Positions 1,749 through 24,000 of a stretch of 24,000 nucleotides of DNA are shown one piece after another. A program made the translations under genes and the position numbers. The first letter of the stretch is position 1. Every line of letters starts with the position of its first letter. Source of the DNA: Pelosinus sp. sgz500959 (GTDB lineage: Bacteria > Bacillota > Negativicutes > DSM-13327); contig NZ_JBGJZL010000005.1 in NCBI RefSeq assembly GCF_042610375.1, positions 76,727-100,726 on the forward strand, in the 5' to 3' direction. Under the pieces are notes generated by a model, which searched no databases, was not told the origin of the DNA, and saw only the letters and a program-made list of their open reading frames with translations.

Positions 1749-3623
1749 ATGAATGTGATGATGTATTTAAATAAAGGAATAGAACTGGCTATAAAGGGAG
1801 AATTGGAAGAAGCTGGGGAGCTATTTCGTCAAGCTATTGATTTTGATCCAAATTGTTCAGAAGCTTACAATAATTTGGGATTGGTTTTTAAAGATACGAA
1901 TCGTCTAGAGGAGGCAGAAGGGTATTTTCGTAAAGCCTTAGCTATAAATCCTAATTGCCCAGAGGTGTATAATAATTTAGGCATTGTACAGACAGAGGCA
2001 GATCATTTATATGAGGCCCTTGATTCATTTCACTGTGCAATTGAACTAAATCCTGAGTATCCAGAGGCTTACAATAATTTGGGCATTGCCCAGAGCAAAA
2101 TGAATCTTTGGGATGAAGCAGCATATTCATTTACCAGGGCCATTCAATCGAATCCAAATCATTCAGAGACTCATTTTCATTTAGGTATTGCACAGTTAAG
2201 GCGAAATGATTTAGACGAAGCTATCAATGCTTTTTGCCAAGCGATTGAGTTAAACCCTTATTATGCAGAGGCCTATTTCAATATGGGGGTTATACAGGCC
2301 GAGCTCAAGATGATGGATGAGTCTGTAGGAATGTTCTATCAGGCCATTGAGCTAAATCCACATTTTTATGAGGCCTATAACAATGTAGGCGCTGTTTTGC
2401 GAATTATGTACCAACTTGAGGCAGCGGAATTTTGCCTTCGCCGTGCCATTGAGCTGAGACCCGATTATTCAAAAGCTTATAATAACCTGGGATTAGTATT
2501 AAAAGATCGTTATTGCTTAGCTGAGGCTGAGGTTTGTCTTCGGCATTCCATTGAGCTAGATCCTAATGATCCAGAGACATATAATAACTTAGCTTTAGTA
2601 TTAAAAGATGTTGATCGCTTAGAAGAAGCAGAACGTTGTTTGTGCCGCGCTATCGAACTTCGCCCTGGTTTTAAGGAAGCAGAATTTGCTCTCGCATTTT
2701 TATATTTGCTCCAAGAACAATATAATAAAGGTTGGGGCAAATATAATGAATGGAGGGAGTTTTATGAACCTAAATTGAAAAAAATTGGTTATCCTCATTT
2801 GGATTGTCCTCGTTGGCAAGGAGAAGATTTGACTGGGCGGAAGATTTTATTATTTAGTGACCAAGGATTTGGTGATGCGATCCAATTTGTGCGATATGGG
2901 AAAATGATAGCAGAATTAGGGGCAAAAACGAGTATATGGGTACAAAAGCCTTTAGAACGATTGATTAAAACCTCTATAAATTCTTGTGAAATCTACAACG
3001 ATGACGATACTTCATCGGGACAATTTGATTTTTCTTGCTCATTATCAAGGATGCCCTATATGTTTAATACTGATAGGGAGACAATCCCTCAAGTGATTCC
3101 TTATATACAAACAAGCTGCGAGTGCGCAACTATCTGGCAAGAGAGGCTTAATCAATTGGATGGAGGGCACAAATATCGGGTTGGTGTCGTTTGGGCTGGG
3201 AATCCCAATCATGAAAATGATCGCAATCGCTCGATTGTATTTGACGTATTTAAAGAATTATTTGATATAAATGAAGTAAGCTGGATCAGTTTACAAGTAG
3301 GAAAACGAGCGGAGGATTTACTGCAAACACCTTATCCGGTCCTAGATATTTCTGAACATCTGAGTGATTTTTTTGAAACGGCTGGTGCCATTAATAATCT
3401 TGATTTAGTCATTACGATTGATTCTGCAGTAGCTCATTTAGCAGGGGCGATGGGGAAAGAAACTTGGCTCCTTGTACCTTATAATCCTGATTGGCGTTGG
3501 CAATTAAAACGAGAAGATAGTCCTTGGTATTCAACGATGAAGCTTTTCCGCCAACATGAACCTGGTAATTGGCAAGAGGTTCTGACGAGAGTGAAGGACG
3601 CTCTAAAGAAAGTTCATTTATAA
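1749..3623 (+). CDS. TPR-repeat protein with C-terminal GT9-like glycosyltransferase domain, long paralog (624 aa)
   Basis: SD AGGGAGAG lies upstream. There are nine TPRs plus a capping repeat. The C-terminal domain is collinear with the upstream gene (RWQGEDLTGRKILL..GFGDAIQFVRY..VGVVWAGNP..DLVITIDSAVAHLAGAMGKETWLLVPYNPDWRWQLKREDSPWY). Confidence 0.8.
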   Translation: MNVMMYLNKGIELAIKGELEEAGELFRQAIDFDPNCSEAYNNLGLVFKDTNRLEEAEGYFRKALAINPNCPEVYNNLGIVQTEADHLYEALDSFHCAIELNPEYPEAYNNLGIAQSKMNLWDEAAYSFTRAIQSNPNHSETHFHLGIAQLRRNDLDEAINAFCQAIELNPYYAEAYFNMGVIQAELKMMDESVGMFYQAIELNPHFYEAYNNVGAVLRIMYQLEAAEFCLRRAIELRPDYSKAYNNLGLVLKDRYCLAEAEVCLRHSIELDPNDPETYNNLALVLKDVDRLEEAERCLCRAIELRPGFKEAEFALAFLYLLQEQYNKGWGKYNEWREFYEPKLKKIGYPHLDCPRWQGEDLTGRKILLFSDQGFGDAIQFVRYGKMIAELGAKTSIWVQKPLERLIKTSINSCEIYNDDDTSSGQFDFSCSLSRMPYMFNTDRETIPQVIPYIQTSCECATIWQERLNQLDGGHKYRVGVVWAGNPNHENDRNRSIVFDVFKELFDINEVSWISLQVGKRAEDLLQTPYPVLDISEHLSDFFETAGAINNLDLVITIDSAVAHLAGAMGKETWLLVPYNPDWRWQLKREDSPWYSTMKLFRQHEPGNWQEVLTRVKDALKKVHL

Positions 3624-3672: not shown

Positions 3673-5031
3673 TTAGAATTTATAAATAAACTGCAGTTTC
3701 CAAAAATCATAGTCGTTGGTAGAAGCTGTTTTATCTTTTATAGTGGCATATTGAAGTTTTCCTGTCATATTTTTACTAAAGGCATAACGGTAGGCAAAAT
3801 CAAGGGTTTTATTGGCATTGCTATTTCCTTCATCGACAGTATCAATTGCGGTATATGCTGTGTAGATACTGTTTTTCTGAAGAACGAAATACTGAGTAGT
3901 AAAGTTTTGGTCACCTTTATCTTTTAGAGATTGGGCACCATAGACAACTTTCGCCATGCCAAATGCACCATCTGAAGTCGCCTCATTGTTTTTACCATAT
4001 TCACCGCTAATTGAGAGCTTATTGTTGAATTTCCAGCCTAAATTACCATATGTATAATTTAATAGTTTTTTATCATTTTTCCAATTTCTAAAGGTGGCAG
4101 CACCGACGGCCCAGTTCAGTTTACCGCTTTTAGCAGAAGCTGAAATGGCTTGAACATCAACGTTAGAAAAATCTGCAGCATAAGTTCCAGCAGCACCGCC
4201 TGCTTTATTATCAAAAGCATATCCGCGTACGCCACGTGCAAAGCGGCCGTGCTTGACATCAAAATTCACACCATTTGATTCCCAGGCAAGTTTTGCACCA
4301 TCAAAACTAAAGAATGCACTATCAACAATCATATCCTCGTTATCAAGGTCGAGTGCTTGACGTCCTAGCGTTGCTTTTACTGCACCGATCTTGGTGGTAG
4401 CGAAGAAACGATCAATTTGTGCACCATAGGTATTACTAGATGAGTTGCCTTGCGTACCACCAAGTATAGAATTTGCCGCTCTAAAGTTATCTTGGGTAGG
4501 GGCAACATTGACTATACGCATTCCAATGGTTGTATTATCATCAACTTTGGCAGTTCCATTCATTCTAAACCAAGAAGATTCTGTATGGGAGCCTATTGAT
4601 GTTGGAGCATTTTTCATGCCTTTTATCTTTTCTTGTACCAATAAGGCTCCAGAAAATTTAATTGTAGACTGATTTTTCTCCACTTTAGTTAGGCGAGTAT
4701 CTAGGTTTTCAATTTTATTCATTTCTAGAGCATATTCGTTAGCTAATTTGTCGATGAGGGCTTTTTGTGCGATATTGGCTTTGTTTTCATTAATCATCGC
4801 CTTGTAAACGATCTGTGCCATTTCACCGCGACTCATGGTTTTGTCAGTGACAAATTTACCGTCTTCGTAACCATCAATAATGCCAGCCTTCGCAAGATAA
4901 GTCAATGCCTCATAAGACCAGTGATTAGTAGGAACATCTGTAAATATTGGGGTGGACGTCGCGGCCCATACTGGACTTGCGATATTCAGGGTGAGTGCCA
5001 AAGCGGAACCCACAATTAAATTTTTTTTCAT
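3673..5031 (-). CDS. SLH-domain outer-membrane porin (OmpM/Mep45-type) with signal peptide
   Basis: I prefer the internal ATG at 5031, which has SD AGGGGG 8-9 nt upstream, over the ORF-track start at 5124. The product starts MKKNLIVGSALALTLNIASPVWA|ATS (signal peptide). An SLH motif follows (TDVPTNHWSYEALTYLAKAGIIDGYEDGKF), then a coiled-coil linker. The rest is Gly/Asn/aromatic-rich with alternating beta-strand character and ends ...LQFIYKF (C-terminal Phe OMP signature). Confidence 0.85.
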   Translation of the reverse strand: MKKNLIVGSALALTLNIASPVWAATSTPIFTDVPTNHWSYEALTYLAKAGIIDGYEDGKFVTDKTMSRGEMAQIVYKAMINENKANIAQKALIDKLANEYALEMNKIENLDTRLTKVEKNQSTIKFSGALLVQEKIKGMKNAPTSIGSHTESSWFRMNGTAKVDDNTTIGMRIVNVAPTQDNFRAANSILGGTQGNSSSNTYGAQIDRFFATTKIGAVKATLGRQALDLDNEDMIVDSAFFSFDGAKLAWESNGVNFDVKHGRFARGVRGYAFDNKAGGAAGTYAADFSNVDVQAISASAKSGKLNWAVGAATFRNWKNDKKLLNYTYGNLGWKFNNKLSISGEYGKNNEATSDGAFGMAKVVYGAQSLKDKGDQNFTTQYFVLQKNSIYTAYTAIDTVDEGNSNANKTLDFAYRYAFSKNMTGKLQYATIKDKTASTNDYDFWKLQFIYKF

Positions 5032-5160
5032 TAAATGATTACCCCCTACGTTATTAAAATAATTGCGGAATGATTTGTGAATCATGATGAATTTGAAAAA
5101 AATAATAGAAATAAGTTCAGGCATGTAACAGGGTCAAATGATCAATAAATACTTTTTTGG

Positions 5161-6510: not shown

Positions 6511-6623
6511 TAGAAATATGTAAATAAAGTTTTGGGAAAATGTACAAATTTTTCAGAAAATGGTAAAATATTTTTCAAAGCTATAAAAATTGCATAAAAA
6601 TGGAAATGTAAAATTTGTTTTTT
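6511..6623 (+). promoter_or_regulatory. Candidate upstream activating / intrinsically bent region: reiterated GAAAATG..AAA..TTTT units
   Basis: Similar units occur at ~6513 (GAAATATGTAAATAAAGTTTT), 6536 (GAAAATGTACAAATTTTT), 6556 (GAAAATGGTAAAATATTTTT) and 6597-6602 (AAAAATGGAAATGTAAAATTTGTTTTT). They lie directly upstream of the -24/-12 promoter. The function is inferred only. Confidence 0.3.
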
Positions 6624-6626
6624 GTA

Positions 6627-6643
6627 TGGCATAACACTTGCAT
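6627..6643 (+). promoter_or_regulatory. Sigma-54 (-24/-12) promoter
   Basis: TGGCAT-AACAC-TTGCAT matches the consensus TGGCAC-N5-TTGCW with correct GG/GC spacing. It lies ~30 nt upstream of the ATG at 6672 of a sigma-54-dependent activator/PTS operon. Confidence 0.8.
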
Positions 6644-6671
6644 AGTATATAAGCAGAAGAGGGGTTTGGTA

Positions 6672-9554
6672 ATGGATTTAAAAGAAAAAATGTTAGGTAT
6701 TATAAGAACTGAAAACATAAAAGATCCTTTTACAGATGCAAGACTAGCAAAAATGTTATCAATCACAAGAGAAAATATTACTGTTTTGCGTAAGGAATTA
6801 AATGTTGGCAATTCCAGAGAGCGCCGCAAACCTCACTTAAAAAAGGCTATTGAAAATATCGTAAAACAGAATAGTAAGCTCAATATTACGGAGATCACTA
6901 AAAAATTAATGGAATCAGGGTTTGATGTATCACGGCATGTAGTCGAAGAATTCTTTAATGATGTTGACATGGAGAGTCCACAAAAGGAAGAAAAAGTTTC
7001 AGTGTTACAAGATCCTTTTTCAACGTTAGTGGGATATAGCGGTAGTCTAGAAAAAAGTGTTATACAATCCAAATCTGCAATTTTATATCCACCATTTGGT
7101 TTATCGACGTTGATTATTGGGGAAAGTGGTGTTGGAAAAACACAATTTGCTGAATGTATGTATAATTTTGCAAAACAGAAACAAATTATCGCAGACCATG
7201 TGCCGTTTATCGTTTTTAACTGTGCTGATTATAGCGATAATCCACAACTGCTATTATCACTGTTATATGGTTATAAAAAAGGTGCTTTTACTGGCGCTGA
7301 CAGTGATACAGAAGGACTCGTTGAACATGCCAATCATGGGATTCTCTTTTTAGATGAAATTCATCGGTTACCACCTAAGGGGCAAGAAATTCTGTTTTCA
7401 ATATTAGATCGGGGGCAGTTTCGTCGATTAGGTGAAACAAAAGATGAACGCAAAGTAAAAATTATGTTTATCGGTGCTACGACCGAAAATATTGAATCTA
7501 GTTTGTTGCTCAGTTTTAGAAGACGTATACCCATGATTATTTCGATTCCATCCTTACATGAAAGAGCTTTTGTTGAAAAAGTTGAAATCATTTATGACTT
7601 TTTTCAACAAGAGTGTAATCGAATTAATGTGAAAATTTTTGTAGAGTCGAAGGTCATTGAAATTTTGACACTGAAACGATTTAACGGTAATATCGGTCAA
7701 TTAAAAAGTACAATACAAGTTGTTTGTGCGCGGGCATTTATGAAGAATATTGGTAAGGATCATGAAATGATCAGTATAGGGTATGAGGATATATTAGAAA
7801 CAAATAGTATCCAACATGATTTTATTTTGGAAGATGTTAATATCGTCGAAGTTAGAAACTACATACAAGATATGTTATTTATACCCTTTGTTAACAATAA
7901 TACTCACGTTGCTAAGAAAAACCAAGATATGGAGTGTTATTTACCAGAGGATTTTTATCGGCAGATTGAAAAAAAGTATCATGAATTAACTAAATTACAT
8001 ATTGATTTTTCTGAAGTCAAAGAAATATTATGGACGTTTATTATGAACGAATTTAGTAATCTTGAAGCCGGTCTGAATGGCAAATACAAATATTTTTCCT
8101 TAACTGAATTAGTTAATATCGTAGATAAAGAAATTATTAATTTAGTGAAAAAAGTAAGAATGCTATTAGTTACGGAGCATATGTACAACGATATTAATGA
8201 AAAAATTTTTATTTATTTGGCCATTCATTTAAATGAAACGATTAAAAGAATACGCTTAAAACAACAAATTATTAATATCAATTTATCAAAAATAAAAAAG
8301 GATTTTACGAAAGAATATCACTTAGCCAGTCAAGTTGGTACTTGGCTACAGGAAATAAAAAATGTAGAAATACCTGATGATGAAATTGGCTTTATTGCTA
8401 TGTATATTAAGGCAGCGATCCAAAATAAATTACCGAAAAATCGGGTCGGTGTGATTGTTGTATCTCATGGGCGAATTGCTACAGAAATTATCAACGTGGT
8501 GAGAGCTTTACTCAATGTAAATTTTCCTATTGCTATTGATATGCCTTTGGATGAAAGTCCATCTATTATCTATGAAAAAATTATTGGGATTTCTAAAATG
8601 ATAGATGAAGGTAGGGGCATCTTATTTTTAGTTGATATGGGTTCTTTGATTAATGCTGGTAAAATTGTGACGGACAAATTAGGCATACCAACTCAAACTC
8701 TTGATCGAGTAGATTTGTTGACCGTAATTGAAGCCGTACGTAAAGCATCGATTCCTGAGAATAGTTTAAGTGAAATATATTCTAGTTTAGTAAAAACTCG
8801 TTATAACTATCCTTTGTTGAGCATTGAAGAAACGAGTAAACCCATCGCAATTGTTGCATTATGTTTGACTGGTGAGGGAACGGCTTATCATATTCGTCAA
8901 ACGATTGAACGAAAGTATGCAAATGTAACCGTTTTCCAAGTCGGTATCATGGACGAACAATTACGAAATAAAATTAAAGAAATCCAAGAAAAATTTAAAA
9001 TCTTGGCGATCATCGGTACCATTAACCCAGAAATTGAAGGCATTAATTTTGTTGTCTATGAGCCTTATTTACTTGAAAGTGGTATTAGAGAGTTTGATGC
9101 AATTTTAAATATTGAAAAAGGTAAAGACTTGGCAGATTTTTCAGAAGACGATTTATTGGTTTTTGAATCAGAGATTCGTTCACAAAAAGAATTAATTGAA
9201 GTGATGTGTTTACTACTCATTAATAAAGGTTATGTGAAAAAAGAGTTTTTACAATCAGTTTTACATCGTGAAGAGATGGCACCGACTTTCTTAAAAGGAG
9301 AAATTGCCATTCCTCATGGGGACTCTCACATTGTTAATAAATCAGGGATTGTAGTTGCTAAATTAAAATCTCCCATCCCTTGGGGAAGTGGTCATGTAAA
9401 TGTTGTATGTTTACCAGCATTTAAAATTAATGACAAAAATGTTGTTAAGCGTCTTTTAAAGCCTTTCTTACATCTAGAGTTCATTGAAAAGTGGCGCACG
9501 ATAACCGATATGAACACTTTTAAAGAAATGCTATATGAGAAGATGAAAGAGTAA
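6672..9554 (+). CDS. Sigma-54-dependent, PTS-controlled transcriptional activator (LevR family) with C-terminal EIIA(Mtl/Fru)-type domain
   Basis: I prefer the start at 6672 (SD GAGGGG upstream), because the ORF-track start at 6615 would lie upstream of and span the -24/-12 element. Domains by motif: N-terminal HTH regions; an AAA+ domain with Walker A GESGVGKT, GAFTGA loop (7281-7298) and Walker B LFLDEIH; one PRD; an EIIA-Man-like segment (RVGVIVVSHGRIA); an EIIB-Gat-like segment (IAIVALCLTGEGTA); and an EIIA-2-like C-terminus (GEIAIPHGDSH). Confidence 0.85.
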   Translation: MDLKEKMLGIIRTENIKDPFTDARLAKMLSITRENITVLRKELNVGNSRERRKPHLKKAIENIVKQNSKLNITEITKKLMESGFDVSRHVVEEFFNDVDMESPQKEEKVSVLQDPFSTLVGYSGSLEKSVIQSKSAILYPPFGLSTLIIGESGVGKTQFAECMYNFAKQKQIIADHVPFIVFNCADYSDNPQLLLSLLYGYKKGAFTGADSDTEGLVEHANHGILFLDEIHRLPPKGQEILFSILDRGQFRRLGETKDERKVKIMFIGATTENIESSLLLSFRRRIPMIISIPSLHERAFVEKVEIIYDFFQQECNRINVKIFVESKVIEILTLKRFNGNIGQLKSTIQVVCARAFMKNIGKDHEMISIGYEDILETNSIQHDFILEDVNIVEVRNYIQDMLFIPFVNNNTHVAKKNQDMECYLPEDFYRQIEKKYHELTKLHIDFSEVKEILWTFIMNEFSNLEAGLNGKYKYFSLTELVNIVDKEIINLVKKVRMLLVTEHMYNDINEKIFIYLAIHLNETIKRIRLKQQIININLSKIKKDFTKEYHLASQVGTWLQEIKNVEIPDDEIGFIAMYIKAAIQNKLPKNRVGVIVVSHGRIATEIINVVRALLNVNFPIAIDMPLDESPSIIYEKIIGISKMIDEGRGILFLVDMGSLINAGKIVTDKLGIPTQTLDRVDLLTVIEAVRKASIPENSLSEIYSSLVKTRYNYPLLSIEETSKPIAIVALCLTGEGTAYHIRQTIERKYANVTVFQVGIMDEQLRNKIKEIQEKFKILAIIGTINPEIEGINFVVYEPYLLESGIREFDAILNIEKGKDLADFSEDDLLVFESEIRSQKELIEVMCLLLINKGYVKKEFLQSVLHREEMAPTFLKGEIAIPHGDSHIVNKSGIVVAKLKSPIPWGSGHVNVVCLPAFKINDKNVVKRLLKPFLHLEFIEKWRTITDMNTFKEMLYEKMKE

Positions 9555-9583
9555 TTTAAAAAATGAAGGAGTGGTTGTAGATT

Positions 9584-10030
9584 ATGTTGGATTTGGATTT
9601 AGTTGTATTAAAAATGAAAGCAGAAACTTCAAGTGAAATTATTCGAAATCTAGGTGGATTGATGTTGTCGAAAGGCTATGTAAAGGATAGTTACATTGAA
9701 GCGGTGTTAGAAAGAGAAAAAAATCTTCCAACAGGACTCCCCATTGATGATTTTTGTGTCGCTATTCCTCACACTGATTCAGAGCATGTGAATCAATCAA
9801 ATATCGGGATTGCAACCTTAGAGAAGCCAGCCATATTTCACTCCATGGTTAGTCCAGAAGAAATATTATATGTAGAATTAGTTTTTTTATTAGCAGTGAA
9901 AGATCCTATCTTGCAGCTTGAATTATTAAAGAATCTCATGTCAGTTTTTCAAAATAAGGAATTATTGATCGCATTGAGGAATGCCACTTCCAAAGAGGAG
10001 GTTAGGGAGTTATTAAGTTGTCTTGGCTAA
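9584..10030 (+). CDS. PTS EIIA component, fructose/mannitol/galactitol (PTS_EIIA_2) type
   Basis: The 148-aa product has the phosphorylatable His context FCVAIPHTDSEHV. It is paralogous to the regulator's C-terminal domain. SD GAAGGAG lies upstream. Confidence 0.8.
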   Translation: MLDLDLVVLKMKAETSSEIIRNLGGLMLSKGYVKDSYIEAVLEREKNLPTGLPIDDFCVAIPHTDSEHVNQSNIGIATLEKPAIFHSMVSPEEILYVELVFLLAVKDPILQLELLKNLMSVFQNKELLIALRNATSKEEVRELLSCLG

Positions 10031-10075
10031 AAACAAGACAATATAATAAATAAAATATAGAAAGGTGGAACAAAA

Positions 10076-10390
10076 ATGAGAAGGTTTAATGTGCTGTCAG
10101 TGTGTGGTTCGGGTACAGTTACTTCATCAATGATTGCGGAAAAATTAAAAGAAGCAATGGAGGAGCGTGGTATCAAAATTACGGCGACGGAAGCTAAACC
10201 AACAGAGGCTTTGAATTTGGCAGAAGGTGGTCGATTTGATTTTATTACGCACACCAGTCCCCTGCCAGCCGCAAACTATGGAATTCCTACAATTAATGCA
10301 GTCGGTTTTTTGACAGGTTTTGGTGAAGAAGAATTTTTGGTAGAAGTTATGAGTGTGATCGAAGAGCTAGGCGGAAATAGCGGCAAATAA
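10076..10390 (+). CDS. PTS EIIB component, galactitol (Gat) family
   Basis: The 104-aa product starts MRRFNVLSVCGSGTVTSSMIAEKLKE, showing the active-site Cys in the CGSG-x-x-TS P-loop typical of GatB-type EIIB. SD AAAGGTGG lies upstream. Confidence 0.8.
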   Translation: MRRFNVLSVCGSGTVTSSMIAEKLKEAMEERGIKITATEAKPTEALNLAEGGRFDFITHTSPLPAANYGIPTINAVGFLTGFGEEEFLVEVMSVIEELGGNSGK

Positions 10391-10417
10391 AATAGTGAAA
10401 AATGAGGGGGAATCAAT

Positions 10418-11839
10418 GTGTTTCTTCAACTATTAAAAGATGTATTTCAGACTTTTGGCTCACCAGTTTTTGTTCCAGTTATCATCTTTATTATTGCTAA
10501 AATATTAAAAGTAACGAACAAAAAGGCCTTCTTTTCTGCATTATATGCAGGAGTAGGGCTCGAAGGGTTTACTCTTTTACTAAATGCTTTTACACCCATT
10601 ATTACACCTGTAGTCAAAAGCATGGTCGAGAATACTGGAATTCAGCTTCCTGTATTTGATGTGGGCTGGCAAGCGACTGCACTTGTTGCTTACTCCACAG
10701 AAGCTGGCATGGTTTTTTTAGGCGTTGGTTTATTAGTGCAAACAATACTATTTTTGACGCGATGGACTTCTATTTTCCAACCTGGTGATTTATGGAACAA
10801 TTATTCTTATATGGTATGGGGCTCTATGGTTTATATGGCAACAAAAAATATGTGGTTGTCTCTAGGATGTATGATTTTATTAAATATGTATAGTTTGCTT
10901 ATTGCAGAGTTATTGGCTAAGAGATGGTCAACCTATTATAAATATCCTAATTGTACAATTATTGCCATGCATAATATTGAGGCCGCTATTTTTACTGTTG
11001 TTTTTGATCCATTACTCAATGCTTTTGGTTTAAATAAAGTTAAATTGAGCCCTGAAGAACTGCAAAAAAAATTAGGATTCTTTGGTGAACCTGTTTCCTT
11101 AGGACTGTTATTAGGTATTTTTATTGGTATCATGGGAAATTTCAAAAGTTTAGGAACATTGGCTGCATGGGGTCAAATTACGACAATGGGGATTGCTACT
11201 AGTGCTATTATGGCTCTTTTTCCTCGCGTAGCCGGTATATTTGCCCAATCTTTTCTCCCAATCACTGAGGCTGCTCGGAAATCTGTTAAGAATGATAGTA
11301 AATCACGTCAATGGTTCCTGGGGGTAAATGATGCGACTGGATATGGAGAACCTGCCACTTTAATCTCTGGTATCATTCTCATTCCCATTATGGTTTTTAT
11401 GGCTCTTGTATTACCAGGAAATGAAGTATTACCCGTTGTTGACTTGTTAGCATTACCTTTCATGGTACAAGGTATTGTGCCACTGGTAAATGGTAATATC
11501 TTTAAAGTCCTTATTACAGGTGCAATTTGGTTTAGTGCAGGTCTGTATATGTGTACGTATACGGCACCCATGTTCACAGATATTTGTTCATCAGTGGGTG
11601 TTCATTTACCAGTCGGTGCCTTACTAATTACTAGTTTTAATATTTTAGGAAAACCTTTAATGGGATTAGTATTTTTAGCCTTCTTAAGTCAGTCCCCACT
11701 ATTAATTGGTATCGCAGTAGCAGTATATTTCATTTTATATCTATTATTCAGAAAGAACAAAGAAGCTGTATATGATTACTTAGATCAAAATGCCATGAAA
11801 AATACAGTGGAAGATCGGACAAATGAAATAACTGCATAA
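10418..11839 (+). CDS. PTS EIIC permease, galactitol (GatC) family
   Basis: GTG start with SD GAGGGGG 8 nt upstream; the nearby ATG at 10416 is out of frame and terminates after 6 codons. The 473-aa polytopic protein is collinear with GatC-type landmarks (..DVGW.., KLGFFGEPVSLG, VLPGNEVLP..DL). Confidence 0.85.
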   Translation: MFLQLLKDVFQTFGSPVFVPVIIFIIAKILKVTNKKAFFSALYAGVGLEGFTLLLNAFTPIITPVVKSMVENTGIQLPVFDVGWQATALVAYSTEAGMVFLGVGLLVQTILFLTRWTSIFQPGDLWNNYSYMVWGSMVYMATKNMWLSLGCMILLNMYSLLIAELLAKRWSTYYKYPNCTIIAMHNIEAAIFTVVFDPLLNAFGLNKVKLSPEELQKKLGFFGEPVSLGLLLGIFIGIMGNFKSLGTLAAWGQITTMGIATSAIMALFPRVAGIFAQSFLPITEAARKSVKNDSKSRQWFLGVNDATGYGEPATLISGIILIPIMVFMALVLPGNEVLPVVDLLALPFMVQGIVPLVNGNIFKVLITGAIWFSAGLYMCTYTAPMFTDICSSVGVHLPVGALLITSFNILGKPLMGLVFLAFLSQSPLLIGIAVAVYFILYLLFRKNKEAVYDYLDQNAMKNTVEDRTNEITA

Positions 11840-16719: not shown

Positions 16720-16969
16720 GTTAAAAAAATATTGGGAAAATTATGACATTTAGAGGGATTTAATATTATTATGTCGAAATCGATTAGTGAAGTAAATAAC
16801 GATATAGATTAATCTTTCAGAAGGTAGGGATTCAAAACCGTGGAAGATCGTAATTTAATGATTATCAGCTTGTATTTTGTACGTTTACATGAGGATACCT
16901 GGTAGTTTTTTTGTTATACAAGAAGAGGCAAAGAGTGAATTGATGAACATATAAAAAGGAGTGAAATCA

Positions 16970-18685
16970 ATGAAATTTTTTGATGATCTGAAAGTAAGCC
17001 TTAAAATTGGTGTATTGATCATGGTTGCATTACTAGCGATTGGCGTTATTGGTTACACGGGACGTTATTACCTAGAAATTTCTGAAAAAGATATGGATGT
17101 AATGTATGAAGAGCAGTTGATCCCAATTAAACTTTTAAATGAATGCAGCACACTTGTAGCCAAGGGGAATGCATTCACCTTGGCACTGATGCTCACTGAG
17201 GATGATAGACAAAATGACCAATTGAAAAAAAATATTGAAGATGGATCTAAGCAAATCACTGCTTCTTATAAAGAAATTGAAAGAATTAATTTTGACAATA
17301 AAGGAAAAGAACTGCTGGCTAAAATACAGATATCTAGAGAAAAATATCGAGTCGTGAGAAATCAAGTCGTTGAGTTGGCATTACAAAATAAAAACTCTGA
17401 AGCTTATGCTATATACATAACGCAGGTCGATCCTCTTGCTTTGCAATATATGAAAGAGTTACGAGAACTGAGTGATTACTATTCTGAACTGTCAAAAAAA
17501 ATTGATATTGCTAACCATGAAGCATCAGAAAAAGTCATGCAACTGATGACAACGATATTGACAGTTTCTTTTATCATATTGATCATCATTGGGTGGTATA
17601 TAGCTAGGAACATTACCAAACCACTAAATATCATGGTAGAAATTTGTGGAGAATTTGCAGCGGGAGATTTTCGCGACCGACCACGCCAGGTCATTCGGAA
17701 AGATGAAATTGGTCAATTAGCTGATACCTTAGCATCTACACGCACCAGTCTTCGTGCATTGATGAAGCAAGTCAATCAGTCTTCTGAACGATTGCTTGCC
17801 TCTTCAGAGGAGTTGACTGCTAGCGCTGGTCAGTCTGCTGAAGCTGCCGACCAAGTGGCCCAATCCATTGTTGATGTAGCAAATGCAGCAGATGAAGAAT
17901 TAAGAATCGCTACTCATACATCGGCGATTGTACAAGGAATAGCTACAGGTATCAAACGGGTTGCAACGAATGCCAATGAAGTGGCTGATCAATCCATGCA
18001 GGCTGCTAATAAGGCTGAGCAAGGTAATCAATCTGTAGATAAAGCCATCACTCAGATGAGTAAAATTGAACAGACGGTGAGTACTTCAGCTCAAGTTGTT
18101 GTCAAATTGGGAGAACGTTCGAAAGAAATTGGCCAAATTATCGATACCATCTCGGGAATTGCTGGGCAGACCAATTTATTGGCTTTAAATGCTGCGATTG
18201 AAGCGGCTCGTGCAGGAGAGCAAGGTCGGGGGTTTGCCGTAGTCGCAGAAGAAGTCCGTAAACTTGCAGAACAATCTCAAGCTGCAGCCAAGCAAATTGC
18301 CACGCTCATTGGTGAGATTCAAGATGATACAGGCAAAGCCGTAGTTGCGATGAGTAATGGTACGCGAGAAGTCAAGACCGGAGCAGAAGTTGTTAATGCT
18401 TCTGGTCTTGTATTCCAGGAAATTGTCGTCATGGTAACTCAAGTATCCGTTCGAACCCAAGAAATCTCTGAAGCCATAAAAGAAATGGCTAGTAATAGTC
18501 AGCAAATTGTCGGATCTGTGCAACAAATCGATGAACTTAGCAAAAAAACGTCAGCAGAGACTCAGATCGTTTCTGCTGCCACACAAGAACAATTGGCATC
18601 CATGGAAGAGGTCGCTTCATCCAGCCAAGAGTTATCTAATTTAGCAATGGAACTGCGCGAAGCTGTCGCCAAGTTTGAACTTTAG
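16970..18685 (+). CDS. Transmembrane methyl-accepting chemotaxis protein (4HB sensor, HAMP, MA domain)
   Basis: I prefer the ATG at 16970 (SD AAAGGAG 8 nt upstream) over the GTG at 16961. TM1 is [18 protein letters not shown] helical ~160-aa periplasmic region follows, then TM2 [18 protein letters not shown] and a HAMP domain. The canonical tip is [36 protein letters not shown]. Confidence 0.9.
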
Positions 18686-18951: not shown

Positions 18952-19326
18952 TTGTATAAGTCACTGAAGATTTTGATTAGCGATGATTCCTTATTACTGC
19001 GAAAAAAATTAAGAGAAGAGCTGGAAAAACTAGGTTGCCAAGTGTTTGAGGCTAAAGATGGAGAAGAAGTGGTTGAAGCCTATTGTCAATGTCGCCCAGA
19101 TGGAGTCTTTATGGATATTGTTATGCCCAAGGTGGGCGGTCTAGAGGCTTTAAAAGAAATTAAAGAAATCGATGATAAGGCAAAGGTCGTTATGCTTTCT
19201 TCTCTGGGAACAGCTGCTGCCTTGTTAAAAGCGCTCAAATTGGGTGCAATTGACTTTATTCAAAAACCATATAATAGCAGTCAAATAGAGAATGCTGTCA
19301 ATAATATCAGTCGGAAGGAGAATTAA
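18952..19326 (+). CDS. cheY: CheY-like single-domain response regulator
   Basis: TTG start with SD AGGGGAGG 5 nt upstream; the nearby ATG at 18947 is out of frame and stops after 6 codons. The 124-aa product has acidic pocket ILISDDS, phospho-acceptor context GVFMDIVMP, and MLSS and QKPY (conserved Ser/Thr and Lys). Confidence 0.85.
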   Translation: MYKSLKILISDDSLLLRKKLREELEKLGCQVFEAKDGEEVVEAYCQCRPDGVFMDIVMPKVGGLEALKEIKEIDDKAKVVMLSSLGTAAALLKALKLGAIDFIQKPYNSSQIENAVNNISRKEN

Positions 19327-20193
19327 ATGTCAAGTCGATTTTTTGCCCAATATATACTAAATCAAGGGGTGCTGACTCCAGAACAAGTACAGGAAGCTCT
19401 TGAAGATGGACGCTCAGTTCAAGTGAAATTAGGAGTACTCGCTATTAATGAGAAGTTTTTGACTGCTGTACAAGTTGAAGAAATTCACAGATTACAACAT
19501 ATGGTTGACAAACGATTTGGTGAGATCGCCATCGATGAAGGCTATTTGTCAGAAGAGCAATTGATGATTCTCTTAGCTGCACAAAAAAATAGCCATCTTA
19601 ATTTTGGACAAACATTAGTTGATAAAGGATTCATGAATTTAGAACAATTAGAACGTGTTTTGGATGAGTATAAAAGAGAAAGTAATTTAGATCAAGAGTC
19701 GGATTTAGCTATCCTTAAAGAAGGTATTCGTACCCAATTAAATCTTTCACAAGAAGATGAAGAGGTAGAATTATATTATGATTATATATTACTTTTTCTT
19801 AGAGCAATCGTTCGTTTCTTGGATGCCAGTCCTTTAGTCATTCCAACTGTCCATGAGCAGAAACAGGATCAGTGGTCTGCTTTGCAAAGTATGACTGGAG
19901 ATGTCACTCTGCAGAGCAGTTTTACTGCTGATGATAAAGTTTTGCTAGAATTGGCACGTCGTTATAGTGGTGAAGAGATTCATGAAATAGATGAACTTGC
20001 CCTTGATAGCATAGGAGAGTTTTTAAATGTTACGAATGGACTTTTTTGCATTAATCTTTCGAATGCGGGGTTAGAACTTGATTTACATCCGCAAAGCGTT
20101 ACAAAAAATGCGGATTTTTTAATGAAAAAGAACCATACAGTAACGATCGATACTGGTTTTGGTAGAATCAATTTAGTAATGGCTAGGATGTAA
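19327..20193 (+). CDS. CheX-type CheY-P phosphatase domain fused to four N-terminal MshEN-like (T2SSE_N-type) motifs
   Basis: The ATG directly abuts the cheY stop, and SD GGAAGGAG lies inside cheY. The C-terminal IDELALDSIGEFLNVTNG..(x)..HP fits the CheC/CheX/FliY signature D/S-x3-E-x2-N-x~22-P. The N-terminal 115 aa form four 24-residue units separated by 5-residue spacers. Confidence 0.7.
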   Translation: MSSRFFAQYILNQGVLTPEQVQEALEDGRSVQVKLGVLAINEKFLTAVQVEEIHRLQHMVDKRFGEIAIDEGYLSEEQLMILLAAQKNSHLNFGQTLVDKGFMNLEQLERVLDEYKRESNLDQESDLAILKEGIRTQLNLSQEDEEVELYYDYILLFLRAIVRFLDASPLVIPTVHEQKQDQWSALQSMTGDVTLQSSFTADDKVLLELARRYSGEEIHEIDELALDSIGEFLNVTNGLFCINLSNAGLELDLHPQSVTKNADFLMKKNHTVTIDTGFGRINLVMARM

Positions 20194-20237
20194 ATAAGAA
20201 TATTGTAGGAGATTTTTCATGGTTTATTTATAGTGAG

Positions 20238-20268
20238 AAAAGCAGGCGGATCGCCTGCTTTTTATTTT
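20238..20268 (+). terminator. Rho-independent terminator of the cheY-cheX-like operon
   Basis: An 11-bp GC-rich stem (AAAAGCAGGCG / CGCCTGCTTTT) closes on a 3-nt loop. It is followed by TTTTTATTTT. Confidence 0.85.
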
Positions 20269-20639
20269 AGTGTGGCAGTTATTAAAAGCCCTTACATACA
20301 TTTTTTGTTACTATTCAGGAATTCGATAAGTTTAATCTATAAACAATATTCGTTCCTTTTTTGAAGGAAATGCCAATAATTTGTCGAAGTTTTAGTTATT
20401 GTACAATTTATAAAAAAATCGTAATTTGCACATTGTACGAGAATGAAAATTAGGGAAAAGATGACGGAAAAGCAAGACAAGAGTAGTGGGTAAAAATACA
20501 GAAAAATCTGAAATTTTAACAATAATATGTGAAGTTTATTAAAATGCCGTTGGAGGAAACAAAGGATTTTGGGATATAATCCAGCAGGTAGCTACTACGA
20601 GTGAGGAACAAGCCACTGGTAGGTAGGAGGCATAGGGGC

Positions 20640-22349
20640 GTGAGATATGGATTTCCCATACAAGAACTAGGGAAAATTAAAATATTTTCAGTAGAAGCAA
20701 TAGACTCTTTAGCAAAAATAGCAGGCGAGATATTGGAGTTGAGAATAACTCTTACTATTGCCCAGTCTCGGTTAATCATTGACGGCATCATGAACCAGTT
20801 ACATATTCTCAAGAAACAAGCTGCATTTTTTGGCTTAATGGAAATGTTGATGTTAATTCGCCAAACCCAGTATATGCTAGAGGCTATGCGCTCTGGAAAT
20901 TTGCAAGGGGACCCTGGGGCAGTGGAGATATTGCTAGATGCCAAAAATGTATTAGAAGAAATGATACGTGAATTTGGCGAGGCAAGTATAAAGCACCAGG
21001 GAGCTAAAGGCTTAGAGATCGAACTAGCTTGCGCCCAGGATACAGAATGGCTTATCACTTTCATTGAGCAACTATTATTGAAGAAAAATAATGCTGCTCT
21101 TATTCTAGTTCCTCAAGCATTAGTGAGCAAATTACCTGCGATTATTTATACCCCATTGATAAAACTAGAGATTCTTGAAAATAGTACAGAAAACCATCAA
21201 GAGGATAAGGAAACAGAATCTCTAAGTATAGTCAATGATGATTCAATAGAAATATTCAATAGCAAATCGACTACGGTAAGTGATGAAAAAATAGAAAAAC
21301 TACTCACGATCATTAGAGAATTAGGAAATAAAGATCATGCTTTTCATCAGATGTCTCGCAAACTGACAATAGAATATAATTTGCCTAATTTATCCCGCGA
21401 AACGAAGGCTATAGGACAATTTATCAATCGCATTGCAGCTGAGTTAGAAGAGGCGGTCATGTCCATGCGCAGGGTTGAATTAGGACTGATTTTTCTACAA
21501 TTCCCTCAGATGATTCGTGATATTGAATTGCAGACCGGAAAGAATATTGGTTTGACCATGGAGGGCGAACATGTCACAGTGGATAAAACCATTGTCAAAG
21601 AGTTATATAATCTGCTACTCAAGATCATATGCAACATGGCTAACTTTAACATTGAGGTTCCAGCAGAGCGAAAGGCAGCGGGTAAGGAAATTCAGGGACA
21701 TATCTGCCTTACGGCCTATTCTTCAGGTAACCGAATTGTAATTGAGGTTGAAAATGATGGTCGCAGTATGAGAGGAGGTGAGGCAGACGCTGAAGTGCTA
21801 GAAATTTCTGATTTAATGCTTAGTATAAATGAAGTGTATTACCAAATGGATGCTTTGCCGGCTAATCTAGAAATGATCAACCTGCCAGATAAAGGTAGTA
21901 AAATAAGGATTACTTTACCACCTTTCAGCATGAGATGTAATGGGTTATTAGTAGAAACATCTGGTGAATTATTGGCTGTGCCTTTAGATAATGTGGTTGA
22001 GATTATAAGAGTGACTTGTAAGCAATTGATAACTAGACGTGGGCGTCAGCTCCTATATCACCGGGGTGAAGTGCTCGGGATCATATCTCTGGCTACGATC
22101 TTAGGGAAGATTGAACAGCAAGATAATGGAAGTGTGACAGTATTGATCGTCGCAAATGGACAGAATAAAATTGGTCTCATCGTCCATAAACTGCACAATG
22201 AACAAGAGATTGTGTGTAAATCCTTACCAGACTACTTGAATCATAGTGAGTACATAGGAGGCGCTGCTGTAACTTGCGATGGTAAGGTAGCGCTATTGCT
22301 TAATATTTCGGCAATGATCAAAAAAATGAATTCTCAATTGTTATCATAA
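20640..22349 (+). CDS. CheA-like protein: HPt (P1) - linker - dimerisation (P3) - degenerate/truncated HATPase (P4) - CheW-like (P5)
   Basis: I favour the GTG at 20640 (SD GGTAGGAGG 9 nt upstream) over the ORF-track GTG at 20601, which has no SD. HPt is ..IMNQLHILKKQAAFFGL..MLEAMRSGNL. P3-P4 aligns with the CheA landmarks MSMRRVELGLIFLQFPQMIRDI..GKNIGLTMEGEHVTVDKTIVKEL. The N-box region is KIICNMANFNIE, G1 reads NDGRS, and no G2/lid is present. P5 is LLVETSGELLAVPLDNVVEI...IGGAAVTCDGKVALLLNI. Confidence 0.75.
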   Translation: MRYGFPIQELGKIKIFSVEAIDSLAKIAGEILELRITLTIAQSRLIIDGIMNQLHILKKQAAFFGLMEMLMLIRQTQYMLEAMRSGNLQGDPGAVEILLDAKNVLEEMIREFGEASIKHQGAKGLEIELACAQDTEWLITFIEQLLLKKNNAALILVPQALVSKLPAIIYTPLIKLEILENSTENHQEDKETESLSIVNDDSIEIFNSKSTTVSDEKIEKLLTIIRELGNKDHAFHQMSRKLTIEYNLPNLSRETKAIGQFINRIAAELEEAVMSMRRVELGLIFLQFPQMIRDIELQTGKNIGLTMEGEHVTVDKTIVKELYNLLLKIICNMANFNIEVPAERKAAGKEIQGHICLTAYSSGNRIVIEVENDGRSMRGGEADAEVLEISDLMLSINEVYYQMDALPANLEMINLPDKGSKIRITLPPFSMRCNGLLVETSGELLAVPLDNVVEIIRVTCKQLITRRGRQLLYHRGEVLGIISLATILGKIEQQDNGSVTVLIVANGQNKIGLIVHKLHNEQEIVCKSLPDYLNHSEYIGGAAVTCDGKVALLLNISAMIKKMNSQLLS

Positions 22350-22377: not shown

Positions 22378-24000
22378 ATGGAAAAAAAATTAGCAAAGCC
22401 CAATACAGCTGCAGGTCATTCAATCACTAGTAAAACTGGTGCAAATATTGATTCTGCTGAACAAATGAGTCTTAAACGGGACTTGGCGAAACGTAGAGCC
22501 ATGGATAAAGTGCGGTCAAGAACGGTAGCAAAGCAACAACAGTTGGCTGAGCGTATTGCGACTGCTACAGAACAAATGGCAGCGGGCATTGAGCAATCCA
22601 GCAACGCTGCTGCAGAACTAGCTGGTACTATGACTCAGATTGCGACTGGTGCGGAAGAAGCGTCATCAGCTGCTGAAGAATGTCGAGCAGCCGTCAATCA
22701 GATCGAAAAAGCAGCGATTGCGGCTGATGAACTTGTTAGAATTTCCTTGGAGAAGGTTAATGTAGCTCAGACGTTGGTGAAAACAACAAGTACTGATGTA
22801 GAGCAATTGATTAATGGTGTCAAAAATGCTGCTGATACCAACATGCAGTCTGGTCGATTGGTAGCCCAGCTTGAAAACCAATCCGTAGAAGTAGGCAACA
22901 TTGTGGAAGCAGTGGTGCGCATTGCTGATCAAACTAATCTACTGGCTCTAAATGCGGCGATTGAAGCAGCGAGAGCTGGTGAACATGGTCGTGGTTTTGC
23001 CGTCGTTGCTGATGAAGTGCGCAATCTAGCGGAAATTTCCGAGAAATCGGCTCGTGATATTCGTGCGCTGGTCGGCGAGATTCAAGATAATGTGAAGGTC
23101 GTTGTAAAAGATGTAGAAGATGCTGGTAATGCGGCCAATGAGGAAGTGGAAAAAGCTAAAAAGATCACTTCAGATCTTGCTAAAATTGAAAAAGATATGA
23201 ATGGTGTGCAAAAAGGTGTTACTGAGGTTGCACAAAATTCTAGAATCGTTACTGAGGGCACTAAGGAGTTTTTGGCAATTACCCAGCAAGTGGCTGCTGC
23301 CAGTGAAGAGCAGGGTGCCGCGACAGAAGAAATTAGTTCGACAATTAATGAACAGAATAAAGCCTTTAATGAAATGAGTACTGCTGCTAACGAATTATCT
23401 GAACTAGCAGAACAACTCAAAATATCCACTGATGCTCAAAAATCCTCGGAAGAATTGGCATCAGCTTCTGAACAATTGTCAGCCAATGTAGAAGAAGCAA
23501 GTACGGCTGCTGGGCAAATCATGAAGACGATGGAACAGTTAGGCGAAGGGGCTAAGATGCAAGCTGAGCTGACAACAAAAGGAGCTACTATCTCTGAGCG
23601 CCTAGCGTCTGCTGCTACACAAATGAAAGTTCGCGCGCAAGAGTCAGAAGGGAAAGTCAATGAACTACAGTCCATCTTAGTGATTAATAAAGAGGAAGTC
23701 GATAATATTATTAGTGGTGTTTCTGGTGCTGCTGAGGCTAGCTTTAAATCAGCGCAAAATATTAAACGACTAGAAGATACCACAAGACGCATTGATAAAA
23801 TTGTGGATGCGATTGTCAATGTGACCATTCAAACCAATATGCTCGCTGTTAATGGCTCGATTGAAGCGGCGCGGGCTGGTGAATATGGACGTGGATTTTC
23901 AGTTGTCGCTGGTGATATTCGTACTTTGGCTAACGAATCAGCCGATAATGCAGATAAAATCAAGGATCTAGTGCGCAATATTCAAAATCAAATTCAACAG
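22378..24000 (+). CDS. Soluble methyl-accepting chemotaxis protein with two tandem signalling (MA) hairpin domains, 3' end outside window (DosM-like)
   Basis: The ATG at 22378 (SD AAAGGGGA upstream) opens 541 codons that run to the window end. This ORF is absent from the ORF track because no stop is reached. There is no hydrophobic segment. Tip 1 is [38 protein letters not shown] (22921-23037). Tip 2 is [39 protein letters not shown] (23824-23940). Confidence 0.85.

Follow-up and report, generated by a model that had tools for sequence, protein, structure and literature searches.

A DosM-like chemoreceptor with two signalling domains, and a predicted kinase-dead CheA paralogue encoded beside it, in a Pelosinus genome

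Introduction

Chemosensory clusters of class F9 are recognised by two signature parts, a receptor with two tandem signalling domains and a triple-CheW protein (PMC9321776, PMC7534058), and the class has been described as MCP_signal:MCP_signal plus CheW:CheW:CheW, of heptad class 44H and with a layer distance of 35 nm (PMC9321776). In Vibrio cholerae the receptor, DosM, is an extended rod that spans two CheA/CheW baseplates and stabilises a two-layer cytoplasmic array (PMC7534058). A sensor domain is absent from 98% of DosM homologues (PMC9321776). Here we describe a stretch of 24,000 nucleotides (the window) from Pelosinus sp. sgz500959, a Negativicute of the family Sporomusaceae (contig NZ_JBGJZL010000005.1, positions 76,727 to 100,726), which ends inside a gene for a soluble methyl-accepting chemotaxis protein (MCP) with two signalling tips. 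This open reading frame (ORF), which an earlier note had read from the DNA alone as DosM-like, belongs by sequence comparison to the DosM family, whose presence marks F9-class clusters, and directly upstream of it lies a gene, cheA', for a CheA paralogue that is predicted to be kinase-dead.

Results

The dosM reading frame and its homologues

The dosM homologue (22378-24000, forward strand; Table 1) begins with ATG at 22378, about 9 nt downstream of a AAAGGGGA ribosome-binding site, and its translation gave 541 stop-free codons that are still open at the window end. The remaining ~109 codons, which lie beyond the window, are expected to be open and to end in ...EEISGLADELQNM. Pfam detected MCPsignal alone, in two stretches (E 1.4e-58, 198 bits), while against NCBIfam nothing rose above threshold and the sub-threshold matches were to assorted MCP models only; no Pfam or NCBIfam sensor domain was found in the visible 541 residues. 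The tip glutamates are E202 and E502, spaced by exactly 300 residues, in agreement with the earlier reading of the ORF. The highest 19-residue Kyte-Doolittle mean of DosM is 1.07, far under the 2.63 of the transmembrane 4HB-HAMP MCP encoded upstream, so the protein is soluble. The absence of a transmembrane segment and of a sensor domain, both proposed earlier, was thus upheld, and membrane anchoring, which would have spoken against the proposal, was not found.

Searching a large protein collection with DosM returned thousands of MCP matches, the best 120 of which were nearly all 646-650 aa long and aligned over the whole query; they came from Desulfosporosinus, Heliomicrobium, Clostridium, Paenibacillus, Acetobacterium, Syntrophobacteraceae and many metagenomes. 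The closest homologues were the protein P0001 (86% identical) and the gene of locus L031 (88%), and a scan of genome contigs with DosM detected relatives at 83% identity or less. Two connections tie these sequences to the published family. The protein WP_062408673.1 (P0054 in our set), 62% identical to DosM over 100% of the query, is the DosM homologue of Paenibacillus naphthalenovorans (S6 Table, PMC9321776). By tblastn of plasmids, P0001 was also matched to Azospirillum ramasamyi WP_111069911.1 (~43% identity over 90% of P0001), which is the DosM homologue in the published cluster [Y C DosM W3 B. R Y A] (S6 Table, PMC9321776). The DosM-like identity suggested earlier is therefore borne out, both by the 62% full-length match to a published homologue and by the F9-type neighbourhoods of relatives described below.

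The two-tip architecture was common to more than 100 homologues, which span at least two phyla and a wide range of genera, so it is not a chance pattern in the Pelosinus gene. One could still ask whether so unusual an architecture arose by misassembly or a frameshift that fused two ordinary MCP genes, or by a duplication within the gene specific to this genome, the more so as some dosM matches are split in tblastn (loci L023 and L026) and the literature records dosM pseudogenes (PMC9321776). However, more than 100 homologues of 646-650 aa share the same two tips at the same spacing, and the 541-codon frame is uninterrupted, which together make an artefact of this kind extremely improbable. On the family evidence, an assembly join of two MCP genes, an outcome that the earlier note had itself held out as damaging, was rejected for the part of the gene inside the window.

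Several variants of the family were also observed. A zinc-binding CZB domain is inserted in hairpin 2 of four cluster representatives (P0297, P0298, P0303 and P0309), and two CZB-bearing DosM homologues are noted in the published table (PMC9321776). P0342 (1174 aa) has four C-terminal PAS domains, and P0351 (1051 aa) has a C-terminal CheA-like part consisting of H-kinase_dim plus HATPase_c. At L023 10001-11982 (Clostridium sp. N3C) and L026 10001-11940, the dosM tblastn match falls into two overlapping pieces in different frames, which suggests frameshifts, representing either pseudogenes or sequencing errors.

Signalling tips and methylation sites

Tip 1 is canonical, while tip 2 carries substitutions (MLAVNGS and GDIR) that had been noticed at normally invariant positions. 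These substitutions are real, and they are fixed family-wide, being present also in the alphaproteobacterial Azospirillum homologue. The two tips are equally conserved (mean column entropy 0.23 for tip 2 and 0.25 for tip 1), and the core residues N, E and R as well as the tip E-x-G-R-G-F are retained in both. Because the variant is fixed in the family, is as conserved as tip 1 and reaches Azospirillum, it does not reflect decay or degeneration. The asymmetry of the tips is ancient and presumably functional.

Methylation sites were scored by the regular expression [ASTG][ASTG]xx[EQ][EQ]xx[ASTG][ASTG]. The methylation-helix-like segment proposed to lie between the tips fits this consensus, and further consensus motifs were found in the N-terminal arms of both hairpins; Table 1 gives the conservation of the sites.

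Geometry of the receptor and its predicted arrangement

Of 117 close homologues, 116 have a tip spacing of exactly 300, as does the Azospirillum protein, and in 108 of the 117 the chain ends 148 residues after tip 2. A profile search of 1.84 billion representatives (50%-identity clusters) recovered 150 DosM-like representatives, 121 of which have both tips; tips in this set were placed by profile alignment, a strict tip regular expression having missed diverged tips. Across the 121 representatives the spacing is 300 in 93 and 295-305 in 116, and in four it is 402-403 owing to a CZB domain inserted in the second hairpin. As the spacing is constant among homologues, the 300-codon interval is not peculiar to the Pelosinus gene. 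All four arms are 148-150 residues long. Geometry exact to the residue points to a structural length constraint.

AlphaFold2 was run on an 86%-identical full-length homologue with 77 sequences. The model is all-helical (predicted local distance difference test, pLDDT, 85.5), with helices at 26-349 and 353-649 and one break at 350-352, and T351 and K355 at this junction are invariant. Fourier analysis of hydrophobicity showed that the heptads are unbroken inside each half and that their phase jumps by ~1 residue over residues 342-363, a shift that is expected because 300 = 43x7 - 1. The junction S350-T351-D352 is a conserved hinge or break, which leaves the rod with no continuous coiled-coil helix. 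A conserved helical segment was also found at the N-terminus (residues 26-51, including R34, A37, A41, K44 and R48).

By Foldseek, one DosM half covers the whole hairpin of Thermotoga maritima TM1143 (301 columns of 309 residues, root mean square deviation 2.8 A, TMt 0.84, 24% identity); by phmmer, half 1 of DosM aligns with TM1143, and the tip sequences are nearly identical. TM1143 (cytoplasmic domain, PDB 2CH7) is a single-hairpin 44H receptor. The signalling domains of DosM have the features of heptad class 44H, an assignment made from arm lengths and the TM1143 superposition.

We consider it likely, with a probability of about 0.8, that Pelosinus DosM is an F9 soluble receptor with a double signalling domain and that it spans an array, by homology with V. 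cholerae. Each half is a complete antiparallel hairpin of 44H length with arms of ~150 residues, and the halves are joined head to tail at the S350-T351-D352 junction. The dimer would most likely be a rod with one kinase-interacting tip per end, as in V. cholerae DosM, and each tip would insert into a baseplate of triple-CheW and CheA, so that two receptor layers are tied into a flat cytoplasmic sandwich array. Since no sensor domain is present, the role of DosM would be that of a scaffold, and signals would enter through other receptors that share its trimers of dimers. Given that DosM has motifs of the methylation consensus and that related clusters encode CheB and CheR, it may also be a substrate of adaptation. 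We estimate the rod at about 44 nm from tip to tip, on the basis of arms of ~150 residues, a length that would agree roughly with the 35 nm listed between the layers of V. cholerae, provided that the CheW/P5 rings lie a few nm inward. What the analysis shows directly is the architecture, the family membership, the constant geometry and the gene neighbourhood in relatives, while the extended rod, the formation of arrays in Pelosinus and the identity of the genes downstream in this genome are inferred.

Several points weigh against this assignment. The predicted template modelling score (pTM) of the AlphaFold2 model, which was read through DSSP, pLDDT and pTM, is only 0.54. The heptad pattern is discontinuous at the junction, which describes two helices with a hinge and no continuous 300-residue helix. 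The last ~109 codons of dosM and the downstream genes lie beyond the window end. The link to the founding V. cholerae protein VC1403 (WP_001185438.1) runs only through the published homologue table. A literature search on cytoplasmic arrays in Firmicutes gave nothing specific, and no experiment or imaging report was found for any Firmicute. Finally, the protein collection holds nothing more than 86% identical to Pelosinus DosM, yet it contains the neighbours of the gene: the upstream CheA' is WP_378954461.1, and four of five more match named Pelosinus proteins exactly, the transketolase matching a gene call on the same 377-kb contig. This gap may come from incompleteness of the collection, or a feature past the window end may have led to the gene being flagged as a pseudogene; as the neighbours are present and a match above 86% is missing, a downstream defect in dosM is possible.

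The hinge also allows a different fold, in which the chain makes a U-turn at 350-352 and the two hairpins pack side by side as one intramolecular four-helix bundle that has both tips at one end; the diverged tips would then divide between them two non-equivalent roles, trimer contact and CheA/CheW contact, which in a normal receptor dimer fall to identical subunits. Such a folded-back pseudo-dimer would account for the sole helix break being a conserved non-helical motif at the exact midpoint, for the broken heptad register and for a tip asymmetry fixed across phyla, and arms of 148-150 residues suit it as well as they suit a rod. However, tomography of V. cholerae was reported to reveal an extended rod across both baseplates (PMC7534058, PMC9321776), a pTM of 0.54 beside a pLDDT of 85 suggests that AlphaFold2 could not pack the halves against each other with confidence, and in such a bundle the conserved helical segment at residues 26-51 would be unpaired. 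We regard this fold as improbable and keep to the extended rod in what follows.

The CheA paralogue upstream of dosM

The gene cheA' starts with GTG, 9 nt downstream of a GGAGG site, and is probably co-transcribed with dosM. Its product is 41% identical to the F9 CheA of locus L001 and 100% identical to WP_378954461.1. Only a CheW-like domain was assigned with confidence by Pfam, HATPase_c scoring 13.7 bits. When CheA' was aligned with F9 CheAs and T. maritima CheA, a 34-residue stretch covering the ATP lid and F box was found to be missing, the G2 box reads DLMLSIN in place of GRGVGMD, and the N-box reads KIICNMANFN in place of HLLRNAIDHG, with the equivalents of H405, D and H413 replaced; the P2/second-Hpt region is also lost. 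The fold is kept, as the AlphaFold2 model of CheA' matches CheA P3-P4-P5 (Foldseek, 1b3q_A, E 6.7e-27).

The same lesions occur throughout the CheA' family, which has 10 members (45-62% identical, 544-574 aa), and four of the 10 carry Q or Y at the position of the P1 histidine. Compared with CheA kinases, which are marked by intact P4 boxes (N, G1, F and G2) and a phospho-accepting P1 histidine, the sequence of CheA' falls outside the active enzymes. CheA' is therefore predicted to be kinase-dead, and is better filed as a CheA-like scaffold than as a kinase. The available cheA' DNA pairs are just 53-62% identical at the protein level; synonymous sites would be saturated, so the ratio of nonsynonymous to synonymous substitution rates is unsuitable here. 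Our literature search on CheA pseudokinases found nothing relevant.

The small CheA' family was always encountered 5' of dosM; in three other loci (L031, L033 and L034) cheA' lies directly 5' of a 650-aa dosM. In the closest relatives among metagenome-assembled genomes (MAGs), CheA' is reduced to its P1-like N-terminal ~160 residues, which are in frame with dosM (L005 8242-10872; L003 3138-5614; P0006, 870 aa), and this in-frame P1-dosM ORF may be either a real Hpt-DosM fusion or a deletion remnant. In L004 (the same as L001; DCFU01000051.1, MAG UBA1796, titled 'Megamonas sp.'), which carries an 82%-identical dosM cluster, a DDE transposase stands at the cheA' site. Kept 5' of dosM in relatives, reduced in MAGs and replaced by a transposase elsewhere, cheA' is conserved but dispensable.

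Gene neighbourhood of dosM in relatives

As the window ends inside dosM, the Pelosinus neighbourhood is known from the window genes, and the adjacency of cheW3 is known from relatives, including L031, whose DosM is 88% identical. Inside the window, the che genes beside mcp and dosM are the CheA paralogue, closest to F9 CheA, and the upstream cheY and cheX. In relatives, a triple-CheW gene (~489 aa) lies directly 3' of dosM in all 26 distinct full-length homologue loci and in all three cheA'-bearing loci. It is followed by cheB in most loci that reach far enough, and cheR, cheY and cheA are found further downstream. The order in L031, L033 and L034 is cheA'-dosM-cheW3-cheB-HisKA-HATPase kinase-Hpt-P2 protein-cheY, and cheR and a complete cheA come next in the two cheA'-bearing loci that extend far enough.

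Besides CheA, this clade's F9 clusters encode an orthodox HisKA-HATPase kinase next to a separate Hpt-P2 protein (L001 14556-16762; L031 16384-18662; L034 7324-10160; L033 16331-21679), a pair that looks like a side phosphorelay within the che cluster. The F9 cluster of L033 also has STAS/SpoIIE partner-switching genes.

These neighbourhoods bear on what DosM does. A conserved kinase-dead CheA' that is probably co-transcribed with dosM could be read as a sign that DosM has some role other than that of an array scaffold, for instance as a soluble decoy or regulator titrating CheW/CheA, or as the partner of CheA' in a non-signalling structural assembly, and even for V. cholerae it has not been established what F9 systems do physiologically (PMC7534058), which leaves room for such a role. 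However, no component of the F9 set is missing from related clusters, where canonical CheA, CheB, CheR and CheW3 are all encoded, and the geometry of the receptor is conserved to the residue. A role of this kind therefore seems rather remote, and that of an array-spanning scaffold remains the preferred one.

Within that scaffold, the two tips need not meet the same partners. A sandwich array of the Pelosinus/Sporomusaceae type might be asymmetric, with the DosM tips lying in two different baseplates, one containing active CheA and the other the structural pseudokinase CheA'. In such an array CheA' would retain its dimerisation (P3) and CheW-like (P5) modules as a purely structural baseplate subunit. 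We offer this as a speculation that is unlikely as it stands; to our knowledge, no structural pseudokinase baseplate subunit has been described for chemosensory arrays.

Other features of the window

Upstream of cheA'-dosM lies a further group of chemosensory genes, the mcp-cheY-cheX operon, from which cheA'-dosM is separated by a strong terminator-like hairpin; a promoter-like site follows the hairpin, and an Rfam scan of the whole window, including the 400-nt gap before cheA', gave no match (Table 1). The N-terminus of the CheX-like protein has an MshEN-type motif for binding cyclic di-GMP (c-di-GMP), with tandem RxGxxAIxxGxL...Q repeats at ~residues 34-115. This suggests that dephosphorylation of CheY-P is under c-di-GMP control via the CheX-like protein, whose gene is possibly part of the same chemosensory locus as dosM.

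Two further regions of the window are ordinary. The block 6615-11839 (forward strand) encodes a LevR-like sigma-54 activator (AAA+, PRD, EIIA), then the phosphotransferase system (PTS) components EIIA, EIIB and an ascorbate/galactitol-type EIIC, and ends with a HAD hydrolase, a glycerol-1-phosphate dehydrogenase-like iron-containing alcohol dehydrogenase (Fe-ADH) and a transketolase, which together fit ordinary sugar utilisation. Two large TPR-repeat proteins (258-1724 and 1749-3623, forward strand) and an SLH-domain protein (3673-5124, reverse strand) were also found.

Table 1. Coordinates of the chemosensory genes, motifs and candidate regulatory sites in the window
Feature	Position	Strand	Remarks
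Ordinary transmembrane MCP	16961..18685	+	Pfam 4HB_MCP_1, HAMP, MCPsignal; hydropathy maximum 2.63
CheY-type response regulator	18952..19326	+	Pfam Response_reg, E 9.4e-27
CheX-like phosphatase	19327..20193	+	Pfam CheX residues 185-269; NCBIfam NF053729 73.9 bits (cut-off 38)
Intrinsic-terminator-like hairpin	20237..20263	+	12-bp stem, 6 GC pairs, then T run
Promoter-like site 5' of cheA'-dosM	20516..20545	+	TTAACA-18-TAAAAT, 10/12 consensus; regional site count no higher than in shuffles
cheA' (CheA paralogue: P1-like, P3, remnant P4, P5)	20640..22349	+	predicted kinase-dead; stop 28 nt before dosM
dosM homologue	22378..24000	+	first 541 of expected ~650 codons; window ends inside C-terminal arm
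Methylation-consensus motifs, hairpin 1 N-arm (E93, E100)	22642..22692	+	E100 site kept in 105/113 homologues
Signalling tip 1, residues 182-218	22921..23031	+	canonical; E202 at 22981-22983; invariant-column block I182-A218 in 77 homologues
Methylation-consensus motifs, hairpin 1 C-arm (residues 306-321; E310/E311, E317)	23293..23340	+	kept in 98/113 homologues
Hairpin junction S350-T351-D352	23425..23433	+	midway between tips; sole helix break in AlphaFold2 model
Methylation-consensus motif, hairpin 2 N-arm (E372)	23479..23508	+	kept in 103/113 homologues
Signalling tip 2, residues 482-518	23821..23931	+	family-specific variant; E502 at 23881-23883

Discussion

The present analysis extends the catalogued range of F9 and DosM to a Negativicute genus, Pelosinus. 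The earlier note had gone further and suggested that a cytoplasmic array would be new to this lineage. This was overstated, because a published survey of 492 representative Firmicutes genomes had already listed DosM-bearing F9 clusters for 16 of them (15 full and one partial; PMC9321776). What stands of the suggestion is that S6 Table of the same study has no Negativicute among the DosM hosts, and that our search found no imaging report for a Firmicute. One more member of the DosM family leaves the general picture unchanged, because what F9 systems do in the cell has yet to be established, V. cholerae included.

The geometry of DosM is nearly fixed to the residue across phyla, with a tip spacing of ~300, a C-terminal arm of 148 residues and a hinge midway. 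This provides a simple sequence rule for spotting the family and a length constraint for models of two-layer arrays. Of the two neighbouring genes, CheA' is the less expected, DosM joining a family already catalogued. A kinase-dead CheA' beside dosM, together with the conserved difference between the tips, could inform how two baseplates are assembled.

Comparison with known systems

The closest counterpart is DosM of V. cholerae (VC1403, cluster I/F9). Both proteins are soluble, consist of tandem MCP signalling domains and have no sensor domain; they belong to the same family by the published homologue table, and a triple-CheW gene adjoins dosM in the relatives of the Pelosinus protein. Array formation has been demonstrated only for V. 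cholerae. The hosts differ, one being a gammaproteobacterium and the other a Negativicute, and in Pelosinus cheA' lies directly upstream, preceded by mcp-cheY-cheX.

Among published homologues, P. naphthalenovorans WP_062408673.1 resembles the Pelosinus protein over its full length (62% identity, 646 versus ~650 aa), with the 300-residue spacing, the 148-residue C-terminal arm and the tip 2 variant. In contrast to Pelosinus, no CheA-like gene is listed 5' of dosM in the Paenibacillus cluster [DosM W3 B. Y R A. W3] (PMC9321776).

For the single signalling domain, T. maritima TM1143 (PDB 2CH7) is the nearest structure: its whole hairpin superposes on one DosM half and its tip is nearly identical. 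TM1143 has one signalling domain, whereas DosM has two fused head to tail.

The cytoplasmic cluster of Rhodobacter sphaeroides uses the incomplete kinases CheA3 and CheA4, which complement each other for kinase activity. It resembles the proposed Pelosinus array in being cytoplasmic and in employing CheA-like proteins from which some of the catalytic machinery is missing. In CheA', unlike CheA3 and CheA4, P1 and P4 are both degenerate while the domain positions are kept, and a complete CheA is encoded in related clusters.

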